From positions 1 through 7,647 of the IMG/VR virus record IMGVR_UViG_2721755676_000005: a DNA stretch of 7,647 nucleotides; one strand, written 5' to 3'. This stretch comes from a virus. Lineage: Duplodnaviria; Heunggongvirae; Uroviricota; Caudoviricetes. The notes beneath the pieces were generated by a model, which saw nothing but the letters and a program-made list of their open reading frames with translations, had not been told where the DNA came from and searched no databases. Within the stretch, counting starts at the first letter, position 1, and every line of letters begins with the position of its first letter. Positions 1,471 to 7,647 of the stretch are shown here, piece by piece. The position numbers were made by a program, and so were the translations under genes.

Positions 1471-1503
1471 TAAATAAAACAACGGGCGTGTTATACGCCC
1501 GTT
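1471..1503 (-). terminator. Rho-independent terminator of the displaced icd 3' end
   Basis: Perfect 9-bp stem AACGGGCGT / ACGCCCGTT with a 5-nt loop at 1481-1503. On the minus strand it is followed by GTTTTATTTA (1480-1471) and sits 24 nt downstream of the icd-frame stop codon at 1527-1529. Confidence 0.6.
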
Positions 1504-1526
1504 GCAATATTAAACACATGTAGTGA

Positions 1527-1924: not shown

Positions 1925-2758
1925 TTATTTCTGTAATCGGTTTATATTAACGTAAAGCATCTCGATTAGTTCTTTTGCATTTTTACTATAGTGCAATTCT
2001 CTATGGCAATTCGGACAAAGGGCAACACAGTTATCTGTTGTATCAGCACCACCTGAAGACAGGGGAATTACATGATGCACTTCCAAATATGGGTTTCCAT
2101 CATTTAAATAAAACGGAGCATTTTTACCACAGTTTTCACATATACCTTTACTTTGCTGTAAAATCCAAGCTTTTACCATCGGGTCTCGGACATAAACTTT
2201 TTGTAGTCTTTCTACCTCAACTGGTTTCCTGGAGCCCTCGGGTTGACTCAACGTTTTCTTAATTAATTTACTAACCCTCATATTCAGAAGCGATTCATCA
2301 TCTGTAGGCTGTGAAAGCTCTGATAGTTCTCCACGTATTATAGACGCCCAAAAACTGTCACTATAAATACCTGGGACATTTATCAATATTCGTTTCGTTC
2401 TATTGCCGGAAGGAATTTCCTTTCTCCCCGTACGACTAAAATAAGCCTGATAACCACACATCTTCAAGCGTATATCGCGGGGGCTATTACCAATCAAAGT
2501 AAAATATTCACCAGGATGGATTTTTCTTTCATCCAAAGAATGCATATGTTTTCTGACTGATGATGACGCCAGATATACTACGACTTGGGATACACCAGAA
2601 TCAACCAACCGTTCAATGATATAATCAAGAGCGATATTGTAATCTTTGTTTCTGTCACCCGGCCCCCACGACTCAAGGATTAGACCATAAACACCATCCT
2701 CTTCACCTATCGAACACTCAGCTTTCAGTTCAATTCCATTATTATCAAAAACATGCAT
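1925..2758 (-). CDS. mcrA: McrA, HNH-family 5-methylcytosine-specific (type IV) restriction endonuclease, 277 aa
   Basis: ATG at 2756-2758 (minus strand), 277-aa ORF. The C-terminal HNH/zinc-finger motif is visible: CENCGKNAPFYLNDGNPYLEVHHVIPLSSGGADTTDNCVALCPNCHRELH. The translation matches my recollection of E. coli McrA, and the position next to pin and icdC is as in e14. Confidence 0.93.
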   Translation of the reverse strand: MHVFDNNGIELKAECSIGEEDGVYGLILESWGPGDRNKDYNIALDYIIERLVDSGVSQVVVYLASSSVRKHMHSLDERKIHPGEYFTLIGNSPRDIRLKMCGYQAYFSRTGRKEIPSGNRTKRILINVPGIYSDSFWASIIRGELSELSQPTDDESLLNMRVSKLIKKTLSQPEGSRKPVEVERLQKVYVRDPMVKAWILQQSKGICENCGKNAPFYLNDGNPYLEVHHVIPLSSGGADTTDNCVALCPNCHRELHYSKNAKELIEMLYVNINRLQK

Positions 2759-2864: not shown

Positions 2865-3419
2865 TTATTTATCCCCTGCAGGAAACCTCTTATACAAAGT
2901 TGACACACCAACATCATAGATAATCGCCACCTTCTGGCGAGGAACTCCTGATGCAATTAATCGTCCGGCCTGTTCCCATTGTTCTGGTGTAAGTTTGGGA
3001 CGACGTCCACCAATTCGTCCCTGTGCGCGAGCAGCTTCCAGTCCAGCTTTTGTTCTTTCAACAATCAGTTCACGCTCCATTTCAGCCAGGGCACCCATCA
3101 CATGAAAGAAAAAGCGCCCCATTGGGGTACTGGTATCAATTGAATCCGTCAGACTACGAAAGTTGATGCCTCGTTCGCGCAACTCCTCCACCAGCACGAC
3201 AAGATGCCGCATACTGCGCCCCAGCCGGTCCAGTTTCCAGACCACCAGCGTGTCACCTGCCGATAATGTCCTGAGCAGTTTTTTCAGTCCCGGCCTTTCG
3301 GACTTTGTACCGCTTATCTTGTCTTCAAAAATCAGCTCGCATCCTGCACAGTTCAGCGCATTACGTTGTAGATCTGTGTTCTGGTCATTTGTTGATACGC
3401 GTACATAGCCAATAAGCAT
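2865..3419 (-). CDS. pinE: Serine recombinase DNA invertase, Pin (Hin/Gin/Cin family), 184 aa
   Basis: Translation MLIGYVRVSTNDQNTDLQ...VVWKLDRLGRSMRHL...GINFRSLTDSIDTS.PMGRFFFHVMGALAEMERELIVERT...GGRRPKLT. with a C-terminal HTH. Catalytic Ser is in the RVSTNDQ motif. I take the ATG at 3417-3419 as the start: it is preceded by GGGGGA about 7 nt upstream, whereas the ORF-track start at 3455 adds 12 atypical residues. Confidence 0.92.
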   Translation of the reverse strand: MLIGYVRVSTNDQNTDLQRNALNCAGCELIFEDKISGTKSERPGLKKLLRTLSAGDTLVVWKLDRLGRSMRHLVVLVEELRERGINFRSLTDSIDTSTPMGRFFFHVMGALAEMERELIVERTKAGLEAARAQGRIGGRRPKLTPEQWEQAGRLIASGVPRQKVAIIYDVGVSTLYKRFPAGDK

Positions 3420-3445
3420 GGTAGATCCCCCTGACAAAAGCAGGA

Positions 3446-3967
3446 ATGATGCCATTTGCTCGTTATTTCTGCATTTTCATAAACGTTGGTTTGGGAGAAG
3501 GCTCTGCATTACCTGTTGGTGTGCCTGTTCCATGGCCTTCAGCCACACCGCCAACAGGCTGGCTGAAATGCAACGGTGCGGCATTTTCTGCTGAAGAATA
3601 CCCGGAACTGGCAAAGGCTTATCCAACAAATAAATTACCTGATTTACGCGGTGAGTTTATTCGTGGCTGGGATGACGGGCGCGGTATTGATGCAGGACGT
3701 GTTTTATTGAGCATTCAGACAGGGATGCTGGAAAAACACCGCCATATTGTTGTTGCAAATGATGGTTACGACACAAAAGATGAATGGGAACTGGCTACGA
3801 TTTTCAAAAAGACATACACACAAGGACGGGGACTTGATGCCACAAATACAGGAGGGAGTCTGATCCCATCACCGACACTTCATTCACGAGGGAGTATCGG
3901 TAATACTGGCGGGAATGAAACCCGTCCACGAAATATTGCATTTAATTTTATCGTGAGGGCTGCATAA
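3446..3967 (+). CDS. stfE: Tail-fibre variable C-terminal cassette (StfE-like), currently in the unfused (silent) orientation; true cassette coding begins at the crossover site, 3474
   Basis: Translation ...GLGEGSALPVGVPVPWPSATPPTGWLKCNGAAFSAEEYPELAKAYP...LPDLRGEFIRGW...ETRPRNIAFNFIVRAA shows the conserved hallmarks of Mu S / lambda Stf-type fibre tips (PxPWP motif, C-terminal NIAFN.IVR). The TAATG overlap couples it to the following tfa gene. Confidence 0.75.
   Translation: MMPFARYFCIFINVGLGEGSALPVGVPVPWPSATPPTGWLKCNGAAFSAEEYPELAKAYPTNKLPDLRGEFIRGWDDGRGIDAGRVLLSIQTGMLEKHRHIVVANDGYDTKDEWELATIFKKTYTQGRGLDATNTGGSLIPSPTLHSRGSIGNTGGNETRPRNIAFNFIVRAA
3474..3499. repeat. Pin crossover site, pin-proximal (26 bp): TTTTCATAAACG-TT-GGTTTGGGAGAA
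   Basis: Two 12-bp half-sites around a 2-bp core, matching the hix/gix/cix/pix pattern (TTNTCNNAAACC-NN-GGTTTNNGANAA). The inner half-site is the exact reverse complement of the inner half-site of the 5365-5390 site, and the core dinucleotide is inverted (TT versus AA). Confidence 0.7.
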
Positions 3968-4569
3968 TGGATAACGCCGTATTAAATAGCGAGCTTATTG
4001 CCACGAAGGCGGGGAATATTACCGTCTATAACTATGATGGTAAAACTCGGGAATATATTTCCACTTCAAATGAATATCTTGCCATTGGTGTCGGTATCCC
4101 TGCATATTCCTGTTTAGATGCCCCTGGCACACATAAGGCGGGTTATGCTATCTGCCGTTCGATGGATTTAAACTCATGGGAATATGTGCCAGATCATCGC
4201 GGTGAAATTGTCTATAGCACCGAAACAGGAGAATCGAAAGAAATCACAGCTCCGGGTGATTATCCTGAAAATACAACCACTATCGCCCCGTTAACGCCAT
4301 ACGATGAATGGAATGGTGAGAAATGGGTGACAGATACCGAGGCACAGCACGGCGCAGCAGTAGATGCAGCAGAAGCACAGCGCCAGTCGCTGATTGATAC
4401 TGCAATGGCCTCCATCAGTCTGATTCAACTGAAATTACAGGCCGGACGGAAGCTGACGCAGGCAGAAACAACCCGCCTTAACGCTGTGCTGGATTACATT
4501 GACGCGGTGACGGCAACAGATACCAGCACAGCGCCGGATGTCATCTGGCCTGAATTGCCGGAGGCGTAG
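3967..4569 (+). CDS. tfaE: Tail fibre assembly chaperone (TfaE-like), 200 aa
   Basis: ATG at 3967 overlapping the stop of the upstream fibre cassette. C-terminal ...DTSTAPDVIWPELPEA motif is typical of Tfa/U-type chaperones. Position immediately downstream of a fibre tip. Confidence 0.8.
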   Translation: MDNAVLNSELIATKAGNITVYNYDGKTREYISTSNEYLAIGVGIPAYSCLDAPGTHKAGYAICRSMDLNSWEYVPDHRGEIVYSTETGESKEITAPGDYPENTTTIAPLTPYDEWNGEKWVTDTEAQHGAAVDAAEAQRQSLIDTAMASISLIQLKLQAGRKLTQAETTRLNAVLDYIDAVTATDTSTAPDVIWPELPEA

Positions 4570-4984
4570 GCCATTCAATATCTGGCGCACCGGAAGTATC
4601 GATCAGCTCCAGTGCGTCCAGATAATCCAGCCACAAATTATATTGCGCCAGTTCCTCACCTTTCAGACGACCAATAGCGGCTTTACCAGGCCATTGCTTA
4701 CCGTTCATGTATTCGTTAGCCTGGTTAATTAGTAGCTGTCTTTCTGATTCAGTAATTTCAATAAGCTCTTCATGAGTAGGTGGAGGAATATCTGCCCACG
4801 CAGGTAGTCCATCCTCTCCGGCAATACGGACTTTTCCTTGTGGCGGTTCAGCCATAAACTCACTGACAATATTTTGATTCACCTCCTTAGCATCTGATAA
4901 ATCCCATCCTACTGATTTATATTTATCAATCATATCCACAGGGAAAAAAGCATTATGCCTGGCACTATAAACATATTCGTTCAT
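4541..4984 (-). CDS. tfaP: Tail fibre assembly chaperone (TfaP-like), about 147 aa from the ATG at 4982-4984
   Basis: Minus-strand ORF ending ...DTSGAPDIEWPTPPAIQAR, parallel to the TfaE C-terminus. The ORF-track start at 4993 is a GTG; the ATG three codons in has a good AGGGTG Shine-Dalgarno 6 nt upstream. Lies immediately downstream of the minus-strand fibre gene. Confidence 0.75.
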   Translation of the reverse strand: MNEYVYSARHNAFFPVDMIDKYKSVGWDLSDAKEVNQNIVSEFMAEPPQGKVRIAGEDGLPAWADIPPPTHEELIEITESERQLLINQANEYMNGKQWPGKAAIGRLKGEELAQYNLWLDYLDALELIDTSGAPDIEWPTPPAIQAR

Positions 4985-5004
4985 ATAAATCACCCTGAAT
5001 AAAA

Positions 5005-5661
5005 TTACTCACCAACAGCCCACCAACTGTAATGCATAGATACCGTGTCACTGGTTGATGACGTTCTGTAAGCAGAATTAAAGCCGGTTAACGTAGGGCC
5101 TTCTGCAGTCATCACGAACCCTCGCCCAGCGCCTAAAGGCGCACCGCCATCACCAGAATGGGTAAGAATGGCGCAGTCCGCTTTTTTAGGGAAAGGGATA
5201 GGAAATGTAATCCTCATTGTTTGCGTCGATAATTTCGGCATAGCCTCGCCTCGACCATATTGCAGAATTTTACCGTTGGGTAATTTCATCCATCCATCAC
5301 CACTGGCAAAAGAGGCCATGTCCGGTATCTGATTTTCCCCTGTCCCTACATCCCGTTTTGCCGCTTCTCCCAAACCAAGGTTTTCGAGAGCCGTTTTCAC
5401 CGTGCCATCCGATTTGATATCACCAAACGGATTCTTGCGGCTTAACAGCAGAGCACGAAGCGCGGTAAGCAACTGGTCGTTTCGCCCCTTCTCCAGGCTG
5501 GCACCGGATGCCTCCACCACGCTGCAAAGCTCCTCCTGCAACATATCAAAGTAGTCATCATCGAGATCGGTGGCAGGTGTGCCAGTCTGGGGGTTACCAC
5601 GGGTACCCACCCGCCTGGTGTGCAACCTTCGCCAGGCACCGGGAGGCACCCGGCACCACAA
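5005..5661 (-). CDS. stfP: 5'-truncated side tail fibre gene (StfP-like): short constant-region stub fused in frame across the crossover site to the second variable C-terminus
   Basis: Translation contains ...[35 protein letters not shown] (resembles the end of the constant region of lambda Stf / P2 H fibres) followed by a distinct variable tip. The ORF-track start at 5661 is a TTG with an in-frame stop just upstream, and the first ~35 residues are not fibre-like, so the real N-terminus is missing or uncertain. Confidence 0.65.
5365..5390. repeat. Pin crossover site, pin-distal (26 bp): TTCTCCCAAACC-AA-GGTTTTCGAGAG
   Basis: Inverted partner of the 3474-3499 site, sharing 15 bp of identity (TTGGTTTGGGAGAAG on the complementary strand) through the core and inner half-site. 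It encodes ...ALENLGLGE... in the fibre frame. Confidence 0.7.
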
Positions 5662-5682
5662 CTTTATGCTGTGTGTAGTCTT

Positions 5683-5729
5683 GGCGGTACCAGCTTGTAC
5701 CCTTGCTTCCGGCTGGTACCGCCCTTTTT
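5683..5729 (+). terminator. GC-rich hairpin (12-bp perfect stem GGCGGTACCAGC / GCTGGTACCGCC, 17-nt loop) followed by CTTTTT; candidate plus-strand intrinsic terminator
   Basis: Perfect 12-bp inverted repeat at 5683-5694 and 5712-5723 with a T5 run at 5725-5729. No plus-strand gene is obviously upstream, so the role is unclear (may be a relic, or block read-through into xis). Confidence 0.3.
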
Positions 5730-5818
5730 ACAAAACAGAGAAGAGTATCCCCGGATGACGGGGTCATAACCCGATCCATCCTGATAATTGTGGCCACAGG
5801 TGCTCTTCTCTGTTTTGT
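5730..5818. repeat. Perfect 16-bp inverted repeat pair (ACAAAACAGAGAAGAG at 5730-5745 and CTCTTCTCTGTTTTGT at 5803-5818) flanking a 57-bp spacer that contains a CCCCG/CGGGG mini-hairpin
   Basis: Read directly from the sequence. Lies between the truncated fibre stub and xis. Function unknown. Confidence 0.5.
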
Positions 5819-5891
5819 GGAGAAACTAACCGACCTTGCAGGGTCGATATGCAGAGACTGAACAGTTAGTGAAGTAACAAGGTGATCGCAT

Positions 5892-6137
5892 ATGCTTCAA
5901 ATGTTAACTCTTGAAGAATGGGCCTCTGAAAAATACAGAAGTAATCCTCCAAGTGTGTCCACATTGCGTCGTTATGCTAAGCAGAATTTATTTTGCCCAC
6001 CGGCCATGAAACAAGGTCGGTTATGGCGAGTGCGTGAGGACGCTGAGTTAGTTGGGGAGTTGGTAACACCAGTAATCAAGAAAAATGACTCATTACTTTT
6101 GCAACGGATCTTGAGTGATGGCAGCCAGACCGCGTAA
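5892..6137 (+). CDS. xisE: Excisionase (XisE-like), 81 aa
   Basis: ATG at 5892 with an AAGGTG Shine-Dalgarno 7 nt upstream. Small basic protein immediately upstream of the integrase and overlapping it by about 20 nt, as lambda xis/int do. Sequence agrees with my recollection of e14 XisE. Confidence 0.85.
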   Translation: MLQMLTLEEWASEKYRSNPPSVSTLRRYAKQNLFCPPAMKQGRLWRVREDAELVGELVTPVIKKNDSLLLQRILSDGSQTA

Positions 6138-7245
6138 GAATAATGTTTCAGTACCTAACTTATATCCGCTTTATAGTAGGAAGGTAAATAAAGTCTATTG
6201 GCGGTATAAGCATCCAGTAACAGGGAAATTTCATGCGTTGGGAACTAACGAAGCTGAAGCCATCGCTATTGCCACTGAAGCCAATACACGCCTGGCTGAA
6301 CAAAGAACCCGACAGATTCTGGCTATCAGTGACAGGATCGCAACCTGCAAAGGAAAAGCGATCACAACGTCAACCTGGTTAGATCGCTATCAAGCGATCC
6401 AGGATGATAGGCTCAAAAGTGGTGATATAAGACTCAATACCTATAAGCAAAAAGCCAAACCAGTATCCTTGCTCAGAGAACGAGCAGGAATGAAGTTGAT
6501 CTCATCCGTTGATGTCAGAGATATAGCACAATTGCTTGATGAGTATATTACAGCTGGACAGCCTAGAATGGCCCAAGTCGTAAGGTCTGTATTAATCGAT
6601 GTGTTTAAGGAAGCACAGCATTATGGCGAAGTTCCACCAGGGTATAACCCTGCTCTTGCGACGAAGCAACCCAGAAGGAAAATCACCCGTCAACGCCTCA
6701 GCCTGGAAGAATGGCAAAAAATTTTTGATATCGCAGACTCCACTCATCGTTACATGGGAAATGCCATGCTGTTAGCGCTGGTTACTGGCCAACGTTTGGG
6801 AGATATATCCAAAATGAAATTCAGCGATATCTGGGATGATCATCTGCATATCGAACAGGAAAAAACCGGCAGCAAAATAGCCATTCCTCTTTCTCTTCGT
6901 TTGAATGTAATCAACTGGAGCCTGCGCGATGTTGTAGCTCGCTGCCGTGACTATGTAGATAGTCCATACTTAGTACATTTTTTCAGATCAACTTCACAGG
7001 CAGAACGTGGGGCACAAGTAAAAGCTAATACTCTGACTATGAATTTTAGCAAAGCAAGGGATCTGGCTGAAATTGATTGGGGTGAAGGAACCCCAGCAAC
7101 CTTTCATGAGCAACGTTCATTGTCAGAAAGGCTATACAAAGAACAGGGAATAGATACTCAGAAATTGCTGGGACATAAAACCCAGCAACAAACTGATCGT
7201 TATAACGATCTCCGCGGAAAAAATTGGGTAACTTTAACAATATGA
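6118..7245 (+). CDS. intE: Lambda-family tyrosine integrase (IntE-like), about 375 aa
   Basis: Tyrosine-recombinase catalytic signature is visible: R in ...LVTGQRLGD..., H-x-x-R in FHEQRSLSERLY, then LLGHK and the catalytic Tyr in TDRYND. I take the ATG at 6118 as the start (the ORF-track start at 6115 is GTG). Confidence 0.9.
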   Translation: MAARPRKNNVSVPNLYPLYSRKVNKVYWRYKHPVTGKFHALGTNEAEAIAIATEANTRLAEQRTRQILAISDRIATCKGKAITTSTWLDRYQAIQDDRLKSGDIRLNTYKQKAKPVSLLRERAGMKLISSVDVRDIAQLLDEYITAGQPRMAQVVRSVLIDVFKEAQHYGEVPPGYNPALATKQPRRKITRQRLSLEEWQKIFDIADSTHRYMGNAMLLALVTGQRLGDISKMKFSDIWDDHLHIEQEKTGSKIAIPLSLRLNVINWSLRDVVARCRDYVDSPYLVHFFRSTSQAERGAQVKANTLTMNFSKARDLAEIDWGEGTPATFHEQRSLSERLYKEQGIDTQKLLGHKTQQQTDRYNDLRGKNWVTLTI

Positions 7246-7356
7246 ATATTTACATGTATTAGTCGCGACTTGATCTGACACTGAGCCTTGAAAGGTTGAG
7301 AGTTACCGGTTTTGATATGGGTGTCGAATCCTTATACAAAACACGAGGTAACTCTC

Positions 7357-7647
7357 ATGCTTCATACTACCAATCCCGTTATCAAACACAAAACCGGTTT
7401 GCTCAATCTGGCTGAAGAACTCAGCAACGTATCAAAAGCCTGTAAAATCATGGGCGTTTCGCGTGATACGTTTTATCGTTACCGCGAACTGGTCGATGAA
7501 GGTGGTGTGGATGCGCTGATTAATCGTAGTCGCCGCGCTCCTAACCTTAAGAACCGTACCGATGAGGCAACTGAACAGGCTGTTGTTGATTACGCCGTCG
7601 CTTTCCCGGCACACAGTCAGCACCGGACGCAGCAACGAGCTGCGTAA
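7357..7647 (+). CDS. IS-element transposase, N-terminal HTH region (resembles IS481-like DDE transposases); partial or interrupted at the window edge
   Basis: ATG at 7357 with GAGGT 7 nt upstream (the ORF-track start at 7312 is TTG). Translation ...SKACKIMGVSRDTFYRYRELVDEGGVDALINRSRRAPNLK... is a typical transposase N-terminal HTH followed by the RSRRP motif. Family assignment is from memory only. An in-frame TAA occupies the last three bases of the window. Confidence 0.55.
   Translation: MLHTTNPVIKHKTGLLNLAEELSNVSKACKIMGVSRDTFYRYRELVDEGGVDALINRSRRAPNLKNRTDEATEQAVVDYAVAFPAHSQHRTQQRAA

Follow-up and report, generated by a model that had tools for sequence, protein, structure and literature searches.

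Site-specific DNA invertases of the Gin/Hin/Cin/Pin family synapse inverted 26-bp sites and cut at the central dinucleotide, and the recombinational enhancer of this Din family is bound by Fis and acts in cis from a position in the 5' portion of that gene's invertase-coding sequence. In the Mu G and P1 C systems, as at the locus described below, the 26-bp sites lie inside the fibre coding sequence, and a constant N-terminal part is combined with two alternative tips, each of which has its own chaperone. In E. coli K-12, the PinE/P segment of the e14 prophage was described in 1985 (Plasterk & van de Putte, EMBO J 4:237), and e14 was also covered by Mehta et al. (2004, BMC Microbiol 4:4); both are cited here via PMC4272514 and PMC12529663. 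As far as these two sources are drawn upon here, they state that the P segment resides in a defective prophage even in K-12 and that its inversion has been shown experimentally in K-12 cultures. In the results cited here from a recent study, inversion of the K-12 P segment by PinQ or PinE yields StfE2, which blocks adsorption of phage T2, and the K-12 StfP tip blocks binding of T2 Gp38 (Kirigo et al. 2025, NAR, PMC12529663).

The locus analysed here lies within a stretch of 7,647 nucleotides (the window, the whole of the DNA that was analysed; Table 1). We read it as the PinE/P-segment site-specific inversion system of e14, carried by a young remnant that is decaying after a deletion (probability approx. 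0.8). The whole element, of approx. 8.5 kb, was placed as an e14 cryptic prophage remnant at icd. The annotation of PK8568, which has the same remnant, and that of MG1655 both show the integration site at the icd 3' end with its duplicated icd fragment (icdC), and the e14 ends are recognisable by intE/xisE on one side and pin-mcrA on the other. Gene order (mcrA, pin, tip, tfa, tfa, tip plus constant part) and chromosomal context match those of K-12 e14, BLAST matches are collinear at 88-97% identity, and the segment in the window has the MG1655 reference orientation. However, the segment is 1,917 bp long in the window and 1,853 bp in K-12, the PK8568 annotation has an IS481-family element where K-12 has lit, ymfE, and ymfD, and a 6,241-bp deletion has removed ymfI through ymfQ together with stfP codons 1-21. 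The original prediction presented the locus as an unexplained orphan system, a description that cannot be retained, as this is the P segment of e14; a Pin switch with in-frame crossover sites that resides in a defective prophage has been known since the 1980s.

Table 1. Features of the e14 remnant in the window (positions are those of the window)
Feature	Position	Strand	Basis or remark
mcrA, type IV restriction endonuclease	1925-2758	-	Pfam HNH and annotation; marks the right end of e14
pinE (pin), intact 184-aa serine DNA invertase	2865-3419	-	Pfam Resolvase 1.5e-51, HTH_7 1.4e-13
Pin-proximal ORF: 17-codon leader, crossover site, tip B (Collar, StfE position)	3449-3967	+	ORF list; Pfam Collar 1.2e-15
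26-bp crossover site next to pin, minus-strand reading TTCTCCCAAACC AA CGTTTATGAAAA	3474-3499		26/26 identical to the K-12 e14 site
tfaE, tail-fibre assembly chaperone paired with tip B	3967-4569	+	Pfam Caudo_TAP 3.2e-32
Second chaperone for tail-fibre assembly, 147 aa, in the TfaP position; partner of tip A	4541-4984	-	Pfam Caudo_TAP 4.6e-29
Tip A (Gp53-like_C), at present fused in frame to the constant stub	5005-5364	-	Pfam Gp53-like_C 5e-13
Distal 26-bp crossover site, TTCTCCCAAACC AA GGTTTTCGAGAG	5365-5390		26/26 identical to the K-12 e14 site
Stub of the fibre constant part, StfP codons 22 to approx. 95	5391-5605	-	Lacks the start codon and first 21 codons
Deletion junction, approx. 5 nt of microhomology (GGxTA)	5601-5605		BLAST breakpoints and alignment with K-12, EC05, and USDA-51408
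Remnant of the ymfH region, now directly upstream of the stub	5606-5870		Three strong hairpins (inverted repeats I3, I6)
xisE and intE	5892-7245	+	Pfam Exc, Arm-DNA-bind_1, Phage_integrase and annotation; mark the left end of e14

Like other Din-family members, Pin is a small serine recombinase; its catalytic domain is N-terminal and its helix-turn-helix C-terminal. It is a close homologue of Mu Gin (structure 3UJ3, matched over residues 1-181 with E=5.5e-95) and retains the catalytic serine motif VRVSTNDQ (Ser9). Compared with K-12 pinE, 18 nt and 4 of the 184 amino acids differ (98% protein identity), with a single nucleotide difference in the first 170 nt of the gene. A strict Fis-consensus scan returned two matches whose spacing was not as expected; near-identity to K-12, whose segment inverts in vivo (PMC4272514, PMC12529663), suggests that pin may contain a Fis-dependent enhancer.

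The two crossover sites form the arms of inverted repeat I1. They are inverted to each other, match at 21 of 26 positions, and consist of 12-bp half-sites around an identical 2-bp core, AA in both. The 15-nt core TTGGTTTGGGAGAAG common to both sites is present in exactly two copies, on opposite strands, whereas 0.01 matches were expected from shuffling and none of 200 shuffles reached two. Between the sites lies a segment of approx. 1.9 kb with two opposed cassettes, each made up of a tip followed by its cognate Tfa, and both tips are in frame with the constant part. Read through the sites, the frames give N-V-G-L-G-E-G (plus strand) and N-L-G-L-G-E-A (minus strand). After in-silico inversion, the stub and tip B form an uninterrupted fusion of 254 aa, and the pin-proximal leader and tip A form one of 136-137 aa. 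Thus, the complete Pin switch proposed in the original prediction, with an intact invertase, two in-frame crossover sites, and two tip/chaperone cassettes, was found; the (V/L)GLGE readings through both sites were confirmed, the minus-strand tip is indeed the one joined to the constant part at present, pin carries no inactivating change, and the inverted fusion stays in frame. It appears that Pin would synapse the two sites, cut at the central AA, and invert the 1.9-kb segment, and that this would exchange the tip and adjacent tfa gene joined to the fixed N-terminal part of the short fibre gene.

The cassettes resemble those of K-12 to very different degrees. The tip B ORF, which encodes 172 aa from its own ATG and is not joined to the constant part in the window orientation, is 61% identical to K-12 StfE; the first approx. 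90 aa are nearly identical and the distal part is divergent. Its chaperone is 90.5% identical to K-12 TfaE, and some P2-like and Mu-like prophages encode a protein identical to the TfaE of the window. On the opposite strand, the second chaperone is 41% identical to K-12 TfaP, with conservation only in the C-terminal approx. 50 aa, and tip A shares 27% identity with the StfP tip of K-12 over 67 aligned residues, although the Pfam family Gp53-like_C is common to both. The names 'StfP-type' and 'StfE-type' given previously to the two tips are thus appropriate as regards position and Pfam family, but not beyond. The plus-strand tip was also said to be silent, which is the classical assumption; it has an ATG-initiated ORF of its own, and in K-12, the equivalent ORF is treated as a gene in the part of the recent study cited here, and it is its inverted form, StfE2, that acts against T2 (PMC12529663). 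In the PK8568 annotation, the pin-proximal tip B ORF is listed as a CDS.

The locus departs from Mu G and P1 C in the fibre gene. In a switch of that type, the constant part has its own start codon and, outside the segment, an upstream late promoter; Mu and P1 have a functional constant part with its promoter and a fully functional virion, whereas here the constant part is deprived of its 5' end and no tail genes are present in the e14 remnant, either in the window or, according to annotation, anywhere in its approx. 8.5 kb. The stub is 93.6% identical to K-12 stfP at the nucleotide level, ends at K-12 position 1207563 (nt 63 of stfP), and is 100% identical to the constant part of an intact fibre gene in a close relative (L013). 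The truncation amounts to 62 nt, i.e., 21 codons including the ATG, of a gene whose product has 209 aa in K-12 and, in close relatives, 220-256 aa. At the junction, stfP codon 21 is joined to the interior of the ymfH region. A single illegitimate deletion of 6.2 kb, reaching from the xis-proximal region through fibre codon 21, has taken out the entire regulatory and late region of e14 together with ymfQ, a baseplate gene, and the start codon of the fibre gene. The same junction is carried by only 2 of the 5,426 complete genomes of E. coli, and scans of metagenomes and of species representatives did not find it. The 5' truncation and the missing virion module had been predicted correctly. The end of the feature at position 5661 needs correction: it is a mechanical boundary of a TTG-initiated ORF, fibre-gene homology extends no further than 5605, and what is translated from 5606-5661 derives from DNA unrelated to the fibre gene.

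The ymfH-region remnant now in front of the stub has a fold z-score of -5.5. Two terminator-like hairpins were found on the minus strand upstream of the stub, and no promoter-like site was found there on that strand; both results come from consensus scans with counts near those of shuffled sequence. The stub is probably silent, judging from its sequence context. Intact relatives carry ymfQ (Mu Gp48-like), Baseplate_J, GP46, Gp45, and sheath and tube genes, and nothing in the remnant corresponds to the baseplate or tail to which a fibre would be attached. It is reasonable to assume that, after the deletion, flipping would have no virion-related output because the stub has no native start, recognisable promoter, or baseplate and is preceded by hairpins. 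The only orientation-dependent products still possible would then be those of the short pin-proximal leader-tip ORFs.

The switch itself appears to have outlived this loss. Among the genomes compared, tip B adjoins pin in 947 and forms a fusion with the constant part in 513, and for tip A the corresponding numbers are 274 and 70. Isolates of the CX strain series differ in segment orientation, apparently at one locus: the CX07 and CX15 genomes are equally long, those of CX04, CX05, and CX21 are similar, and the junction positions fit a single segment. Two relatives (EC05 and L013) carry the same segment as the window, 99.8-99.9% identical and inverted exactly between the two sites, and in L013 the flanks are 99.9-100% identical to the window. 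Both orientations therefore occur for the alleles of the window, in near-identical relatives; within the deletion lineage, however, every verified contig that carries the junction has the window orientation. The recombination machinery is structurally intact and very probably still flips.

If the segment is still inverted, the leader-tip products might matter to the host. Inversion would join the leader to tip A, and the resulting 136-aa protein, similar in design to StfE2, might mask outer-membrane phage receptors, which would make the segment a domesticated, phase-variable anti-phage function. The deletion would be irrelevant to such a role because a leader-tip product can do without both constant part and virion; indeed, with a host-level function published for e14 inversion (PMC12529663, in the part cited here), absence of a virion is not absence of function. 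The precedent of an inversion-made StfE2 that blocks T2 comes from the same e14 P segment, and the leader ORF and a Gp53-like tip are present here as well (PMC12529663, as cited). The ATG-initiated leader MPFARYFCIFINVGLGE spans the crossover site within its ORF and agrees with the K-12 leader at 15 of 17 residues, pin is still intact, both sites have been kept, and the defence gene mcrA has been retained beside pin. Moreover, leader-tip A proteins of 136 aa, identical or near-identical to the predicted one, are annotated in many genomes, and tip A adjoins pin more often than it is fused to the constant part. Nonetheless, this role appears improbable for the locus. The tip that forms StfE2 in K-12 is a different allele, with so little identity to tip A (27%) that the receptor specificity of StfE2 is not transferable, and the published activity was obtained by overproduction from a plasmid, the findings cited from that study not including expression of the leader ORF at its native level (PMC12529663). 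A consensus scan, again with counts near those of shuffled sequence, gave no promoter-like site for the leader ORF, and an AGGA motif lies only 0-3 nt from its ATG, as read from the sequence. Substitutions between the e14 and P2-like leaders are mostly non-synonymous (about 4 to 2), a pattern that fits constraint at the DNA level, on the crossover site and the pin promoter, better than coding constraint, and in sister lineages other deletions have eliminated the switch. It would likewise be surprising if Pin were still active and toggled between two short products, with the leader joined either to the Collar tip or to the Gp53-like tip, that formed together with mcrA a host phase-variable surface or anti-phage module, whose receptor specificity would be unlike that of K-12 StfE2.

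Other explanations look beyond the remnant, to the phages that share its cassettes. P2-like prophages (e.g., Escherichia phage pro483) are 87-93% identical at the nucleotide level across invertase and cassette, two of the compared loci (L007 and L010) encode the identical 200-aa TfaE, and the pin-proximal leader is conserved (MPVAR..CIF.NVGLGE); however, their tips join a long constant part of the P2 H type (435-aa fusion) and they possess a complete P2 tail module. The P2-like phages with such cassettes were pro483 and one from O157:H43 strain T22. Tfa chaperones are, in general, partly interchangeable between phages. The question of whether the fibre tip plus chaperone, or the chaperones alone, are supplied in trans to another prophage or an R-type tailocin, altering its host range, had been raised together with simple decay. 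The presence of identical TfaE and similar cassettes in P2-like phages and Mu-like prophages, and of two further places resembling the constant part in strain SZQ1, would be in keeping with such use. However, mounting a tip requires an N-terminal part matched to the baseplate of the recipient, and the stub lacks its first 21 residues along with its start codon and a recognisable promoter. Both tfa genes lie downstream of tips with no promoter of their own in the consensus scan, in which the matches inside the segment are weak, and in PK8568 the constant part is present only once; therefore, a partner is not a constant feature of the lineage. Use in trans is thus very unlikely, and of the two possibilities raised, decay is favoured by the rare junction, by the near-identical relatives with an intact prophage or with other deletions, two of which destroy the switch, and by the lack in PK8568 of another constant part to accept the tip. 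A functionless remnant might also serve as a passive reservoir, donating tip and chaperone alleles by homologous recombination to incoming P2-like, Mu-like, or e14-like phages. The cassettes are mosaic, as seen in tip B, near-identical to StfE and then divergent, and in the Tfa proteins, conserved only C-terminally, and a single cassette recurs behind constant parts or tail types of three kinds; yet no recombination event involving the remnant was traced, and this is a general property of prophage fibre genes with nothing specific to this locus. We regard this role as a tentative possibility only; it can coexist with decay and does not compete with the best explanation.

That explanation, in which the switch is structurally competent and sits in a young, decaying deletion product, remains the best reading when related lineages are considered. 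Relatives with at least 99.9% identity (flanks 99.9-100%) have either an intact prophage or other independent deletions. The lineage with an exactly matching IntE includes an intact SfV/Mu-like myovirus prophage (L015/L020) and at least four different deletions, two of which destroy the switch: the USDA type lacks the distal site and the stub, and another (L024) lacks most of the segment. No evidence of selection maintaining the orphan switch was found in this analysis. Why a switch persists without a virion has already been asked and partly answered by experiment, in the portions of the literature cited here (PMC4272514, PMC12529663). Within this context, a single closely related e14 lineage with an intact prophage, at least four independent deletion derivatives, and both orientations is a modestly useful natural experiment, and it could be used to test for selection on keeping the switch through the proposed virion-independent function of the StfE2 type. 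The mcrA-pin-segment end is retained in several independent remnants, which could reflect selection or constraint on deletion ends.

The window covers the e14 cryptic prophage locus at the classical icd site, where the prophage is cut down to approximately 8.5 kb. The E. coli chromosomes SZQ1 and PK8568 align to it with one mismatch and one indel, and both differences fall outside 2865-5661. The annotated gene order in PK8568 is ycgX, iraM, a 3' pseudogene copy of icd, mcrA, pinE, a tail fibre protein gene, tfaE, a second tail fibre assembly protein gene, a gene for a gp53-like protein, a frameshifted remnant, xisE, intE, an IS481-family pseudogene, one hypothetical gene, and icd. The e14 element of MG1655 is collinear with the window at 88-97% nucleotide identity, and the two divergent stretches both lie within the invertible segment. 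The inversion system is the already known e14 P segment with PinE, which was reportedly described by Plasterk and van de Putte in 1985 and is said to have been analysed by Mehta et al. in 2004. Because the crossover sites are identical to those of K-12 e14, the idea of a novel orphan inversion system was rejected. Neither the switch nor the puzzle of its presence in a defective prophage is new; the latter was raised by Goldberg et al. 2014 (PMC4272514). The lit, ymfE, and ymfD genes of K-12 are missing from this e14 variant, in which a single hypothetical gene precedes icd.

Features of the window and of its fibre cassettes
Feature	Position	Strand	Description
pin	2865-3419	minus	184 aa; Resolvase and HTH_7 domains (Pfam)
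Pin-proximal ORF	3449-3967	plus	begins with the 17-codon leader
Crossover sites	3474-3499 and 5365-5390		AA core in both
Tip A		minus	Gp53-like_C; 27% identity to K-12 StfP tip
Chaperone of tip A			Caudo_TAP; 41% identity to K-12 TfaP
Tip B			Collar; 61% identity to K-12 StfE, first ~90 aa near-identical
TfaE			Caudo_TAP; 90.5% identity to K-12 TfaE
Perfect 16-nt inverted repeat	5730-5745 / 5803-5818		in 5670-5870, upstream of xisE
12-nt inverted repeat	5683-5694 / 5712-5723		in 5670-5870, upstream of xisE
Third hairpin	5829-5848		in 5670-5870, upstream of xisE
IS481-family transposase	7312-7647		just past intE; runs off window end
~46-nt element	616-663 and 1476-1521		two copies, hairpin-bearing

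The original prediction of a Pin switch with in-frame crossover sites was borne out. Residues 1-181 of the pin product align with Mu Gin (PDB 3UJ3, E=5.5e-95), the catalytic serine motif is present, and four residues differ from K-12 PinE. Each crossover site matches its K-12 counterpart at 26/26 positions, and the 15-nt core common to both sites has exactly two matches in the window, one on each strand (shuffle expectation, 0.01). A strict scan for the Fis consensus of the enhancer gave two hits, but their spacing was not the expected one. (V/L)GLGE is read through both sites, and when the segment 3486-5378 was inverted in silico, the constant part of the fibre gene (the stub) was fused in frame and without interruption to tip B, which lies beside pin, while the leader was joined to tip A in a second ORF. 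The elements placed within 2865-5661 are all present; however, the end at 5661 is only a mechanical ORF boundary, and fibre homology ends at 5605.

Compared with K-12, 6,241 bp (1201322-1207562) are missing from the window. In a multiple alignment, the deletion junction reads GGGTA/CCCAC, with approximately 5 nt of microhomology (search sequence, GGGTTACCACGGGTACCCACCCGCCTGGTG), and stfP codon 21 now abuts sequence from inside the region that is annotated as ymfH in K-12. Lost in the deletion were the genes for the repressor and Cro, those for replication and late functions, jayE, and ymfQ, together with the ribosome-binding site and ATG of the fibre gene. The fibre gene is therefore 5'-truncated, as originally noticed, but only by its first 21 codons, start codon included (MHRIDTKTAQKDKFGAGKNGF). 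The encoded protein is 209 aa long in K-12 and between 220 and 256 aa in close relatives, and a gross truncation was rejected, since just 21 of about 209-256 codons are absent. The junction is rare: it was found in two of 5,426 complete genomes and on roughly 20 draft contigs, and exact-pattern scans of JGI metagenome contigs and GTDB species representatives yielded no match.

The deletion has placed a strongly structured stretch (5670-5870; fold z = -5.5) upstream of the stub. It contains two terminator-like hairpins on the stub's strand, identified as consensus matches only, and a consensus scan of the same strand upstream of the stub revealed no promoter-like match. Because the start codon is also missing, expression of the stub is unlikely. 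The stretch is conserved in EC05 and USDA-51408 as well as in K-12, where it falls within the ORF annotated as ymfH, and an Rfam scan of the window, this stretch included, matched no family. Two independent deletions, those of the window type and of strain EC05, have endpoints no more than about 125 nt away from it. A role as a transcription terminator working in both directions, or in regulation of the xis-int region, is possible.

Inversion of the segment is evident among relatives. Across 5,426 complete genomes, tip B lies next to pin in 947 and is fused to the constant part in 513; for tip A, the corresponding numbers are 274 and 70, i.e., as raw counts of E. coli genomes that ignore sampling and clonal structure, the pin-adjacent position is about four times commoner. 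Within the CX strain series, orientation differs between CX07 and CX15, CX05, CX04, and CX21. This difference appears to sit at one locus: the CX07 and CX15 genomes are equal in length, those of the other three are close to that, and the places where the junctions fall are consistent with a single segment. In EC05 and at locus L013, the alleles are those of the window, and the segment is flipped exactly from one site to the other (segment identity to the window of 99.84% and 99.9%, respectively; L013 flanks, 99.9-100%). In K-12 cultures, inversion has been seen by whole-genome sequencing and PCR (PMC4272514) and by qPCR (PMC12529663).

Within the deletion lineage, i.e., the carriers of the window-type junction, every verified contig has the window's orientation, and an exact look-up of the deletion-specific inverted forms (242 and 237 aa) found neither in the protein collection. 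A 207-aa inverted form, which has the same internal GTG start as the lineage's 171-aa gene call, occurs on seven contigs; the longest is 361,895 bp, and one deletion-lineage contig is 361,995 bp. This form is only suggestive of the inverted orientation within the lineage. In addition, a 130-kb contig of a deletion-lineage isolate (L027; GCA_045908375.1, JBAOFD010000015.1) ends exactly at the edge of the shared crossover core, at window position 3486, which fits mixed orientation in the culture and a second copy of tip B elsewhere in the genome equally well.

The original prediction asked whether the orphaned switch serves another particle in trans or is decaying. Use of the fibre tip and chaperone by another prophage or tailocin is very improbable. 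The check for a matching constant part elsewhere in the genome gave different answers in the two chromosomes: PK8568 has no second copy, whereas SZQ1 has two further places similar to it. SZQ1 was not among the 60 matches listed for ymfQ plus the stfP 5' end, the part missing from the remnant. Given that P2-like phages (e.g., pro483) and Mu-like prophages at other sites encode an identical TfaE protein and carry cassettes with 87-93% nucleotide identity, the tip/chaperone cassette is a widely exchanged module, and it could plausibly end up recombining with such phages. Somewhat less remote, although still unlikely, is a virion-independent anti-phage role that the deletion would leave unaffected. 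Kirigo et al. 2025 (PMC12529663) report that StfE2, in which the StfP tip is joined to the pin-proximal leader, arises when PinQ or PinE inverts the K-12 segment, that overproduced StfE2 stops T2 adsorption, and that inverted segments occur in 33% of 562 genomes. The window keeps the leader ORF on which such a role would depend. However, its tip A allele is very different from the K-12 StfP tip, a scan found no promoter-like site for the leader ORF, the few comparisons that could be made gave no sign that the leader is constrained as coding sequence, and sister lineages have lost the switch.

A recent deletion, with the remaining element now decaying, best accounts for the arrangement in the window. 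TUM1880 has a full-length prophage at icd that ends in the same pin-mcrA module, with an HK97-type head, a Mu/SfV-like contractile tail, and ymfQ directly upstream of the fibre gene. At three further loci (L006, L008, and L015), the pin-segment module adjoins Mu-like baseplate genes, the sole tail genes within reach of these approximately 9.6-kb stretches. Assemblies encoding the window's exact IntE protein include GCA_014105875.1, in which the early region is intact (L020) and Mu-like baseplate genes lie beside the fibre gene (L015), and forms with the window-type deletion, a 'USDA-type' deletion lacking the stub and distal crossover site, a deletion of most of the invertible segment (L024), and a deletion that brought GP46 next to the repressor region (L013/L016). 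These structures are independent of one another, and the lineage with the exact IntE thus offers a natural deletion series in which the e14-like prophage has lost internal sequence in at least four different ways (L002, which is USDA-ARS-USMARC-51408, L009, L017, L023, L024, and L013/L016). In EC05, another remnant, a separate junction lies immediately upstream of the fibre start codon, which is intact. Two of the four deletions in the exact-IntE lineage destroy the switch by loss of a crossover site or most of the segment, and the deletions are recent, as flanks are 99.9-100% identical between structures. Ongoing decay without selection for the switch would be expected to give this pattern. 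The initial observation holds, and its interpretation holds in part: the system is a known one, and decay after a recent deletion is favoured.

Several minor observations concern the relatives and the prophage ends. Only the last 131 codons of the TUM1880 fibre gene (L004) are annotated, and an unannotated gap of approximately 270 nt (19401-19670) lies between it and ymfQ, which suggests that the constant part is frameshifted or disrupted in this otherwise intact e14-like prophage. A P2-like prophage with an identical TfaE (L007, GCA_900479915.1; 3194-7164), whose locus includes a run of masked or unknown bases, has a more complicated invertible region between the fibre gene and invertase, containing three alternative tip fragments (a 123-aa Gp53-like ORF, a 63-aa ORF, and a 172-aa Collar ORF), suggesting a multi-site, shufflon-like arrangement. 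The IS481-family transposase ORF, also present at L001 (16356-17397), is frameshifted in the relatives' annotation, and the indel near 7319 that separates the window from SZQ1 and PK8568 is just upstream of this ORF. At the prophage end, one copy of the approximately 46-nt element (AAAACAACGGG.GTG..ATACGCCCGTT...) immediately follows the icd pseudogene copy. The second is found 860 nt farther outward, in the interval from ycgX to ymgK, and could be a scar left at icd by an older integration or excision event.
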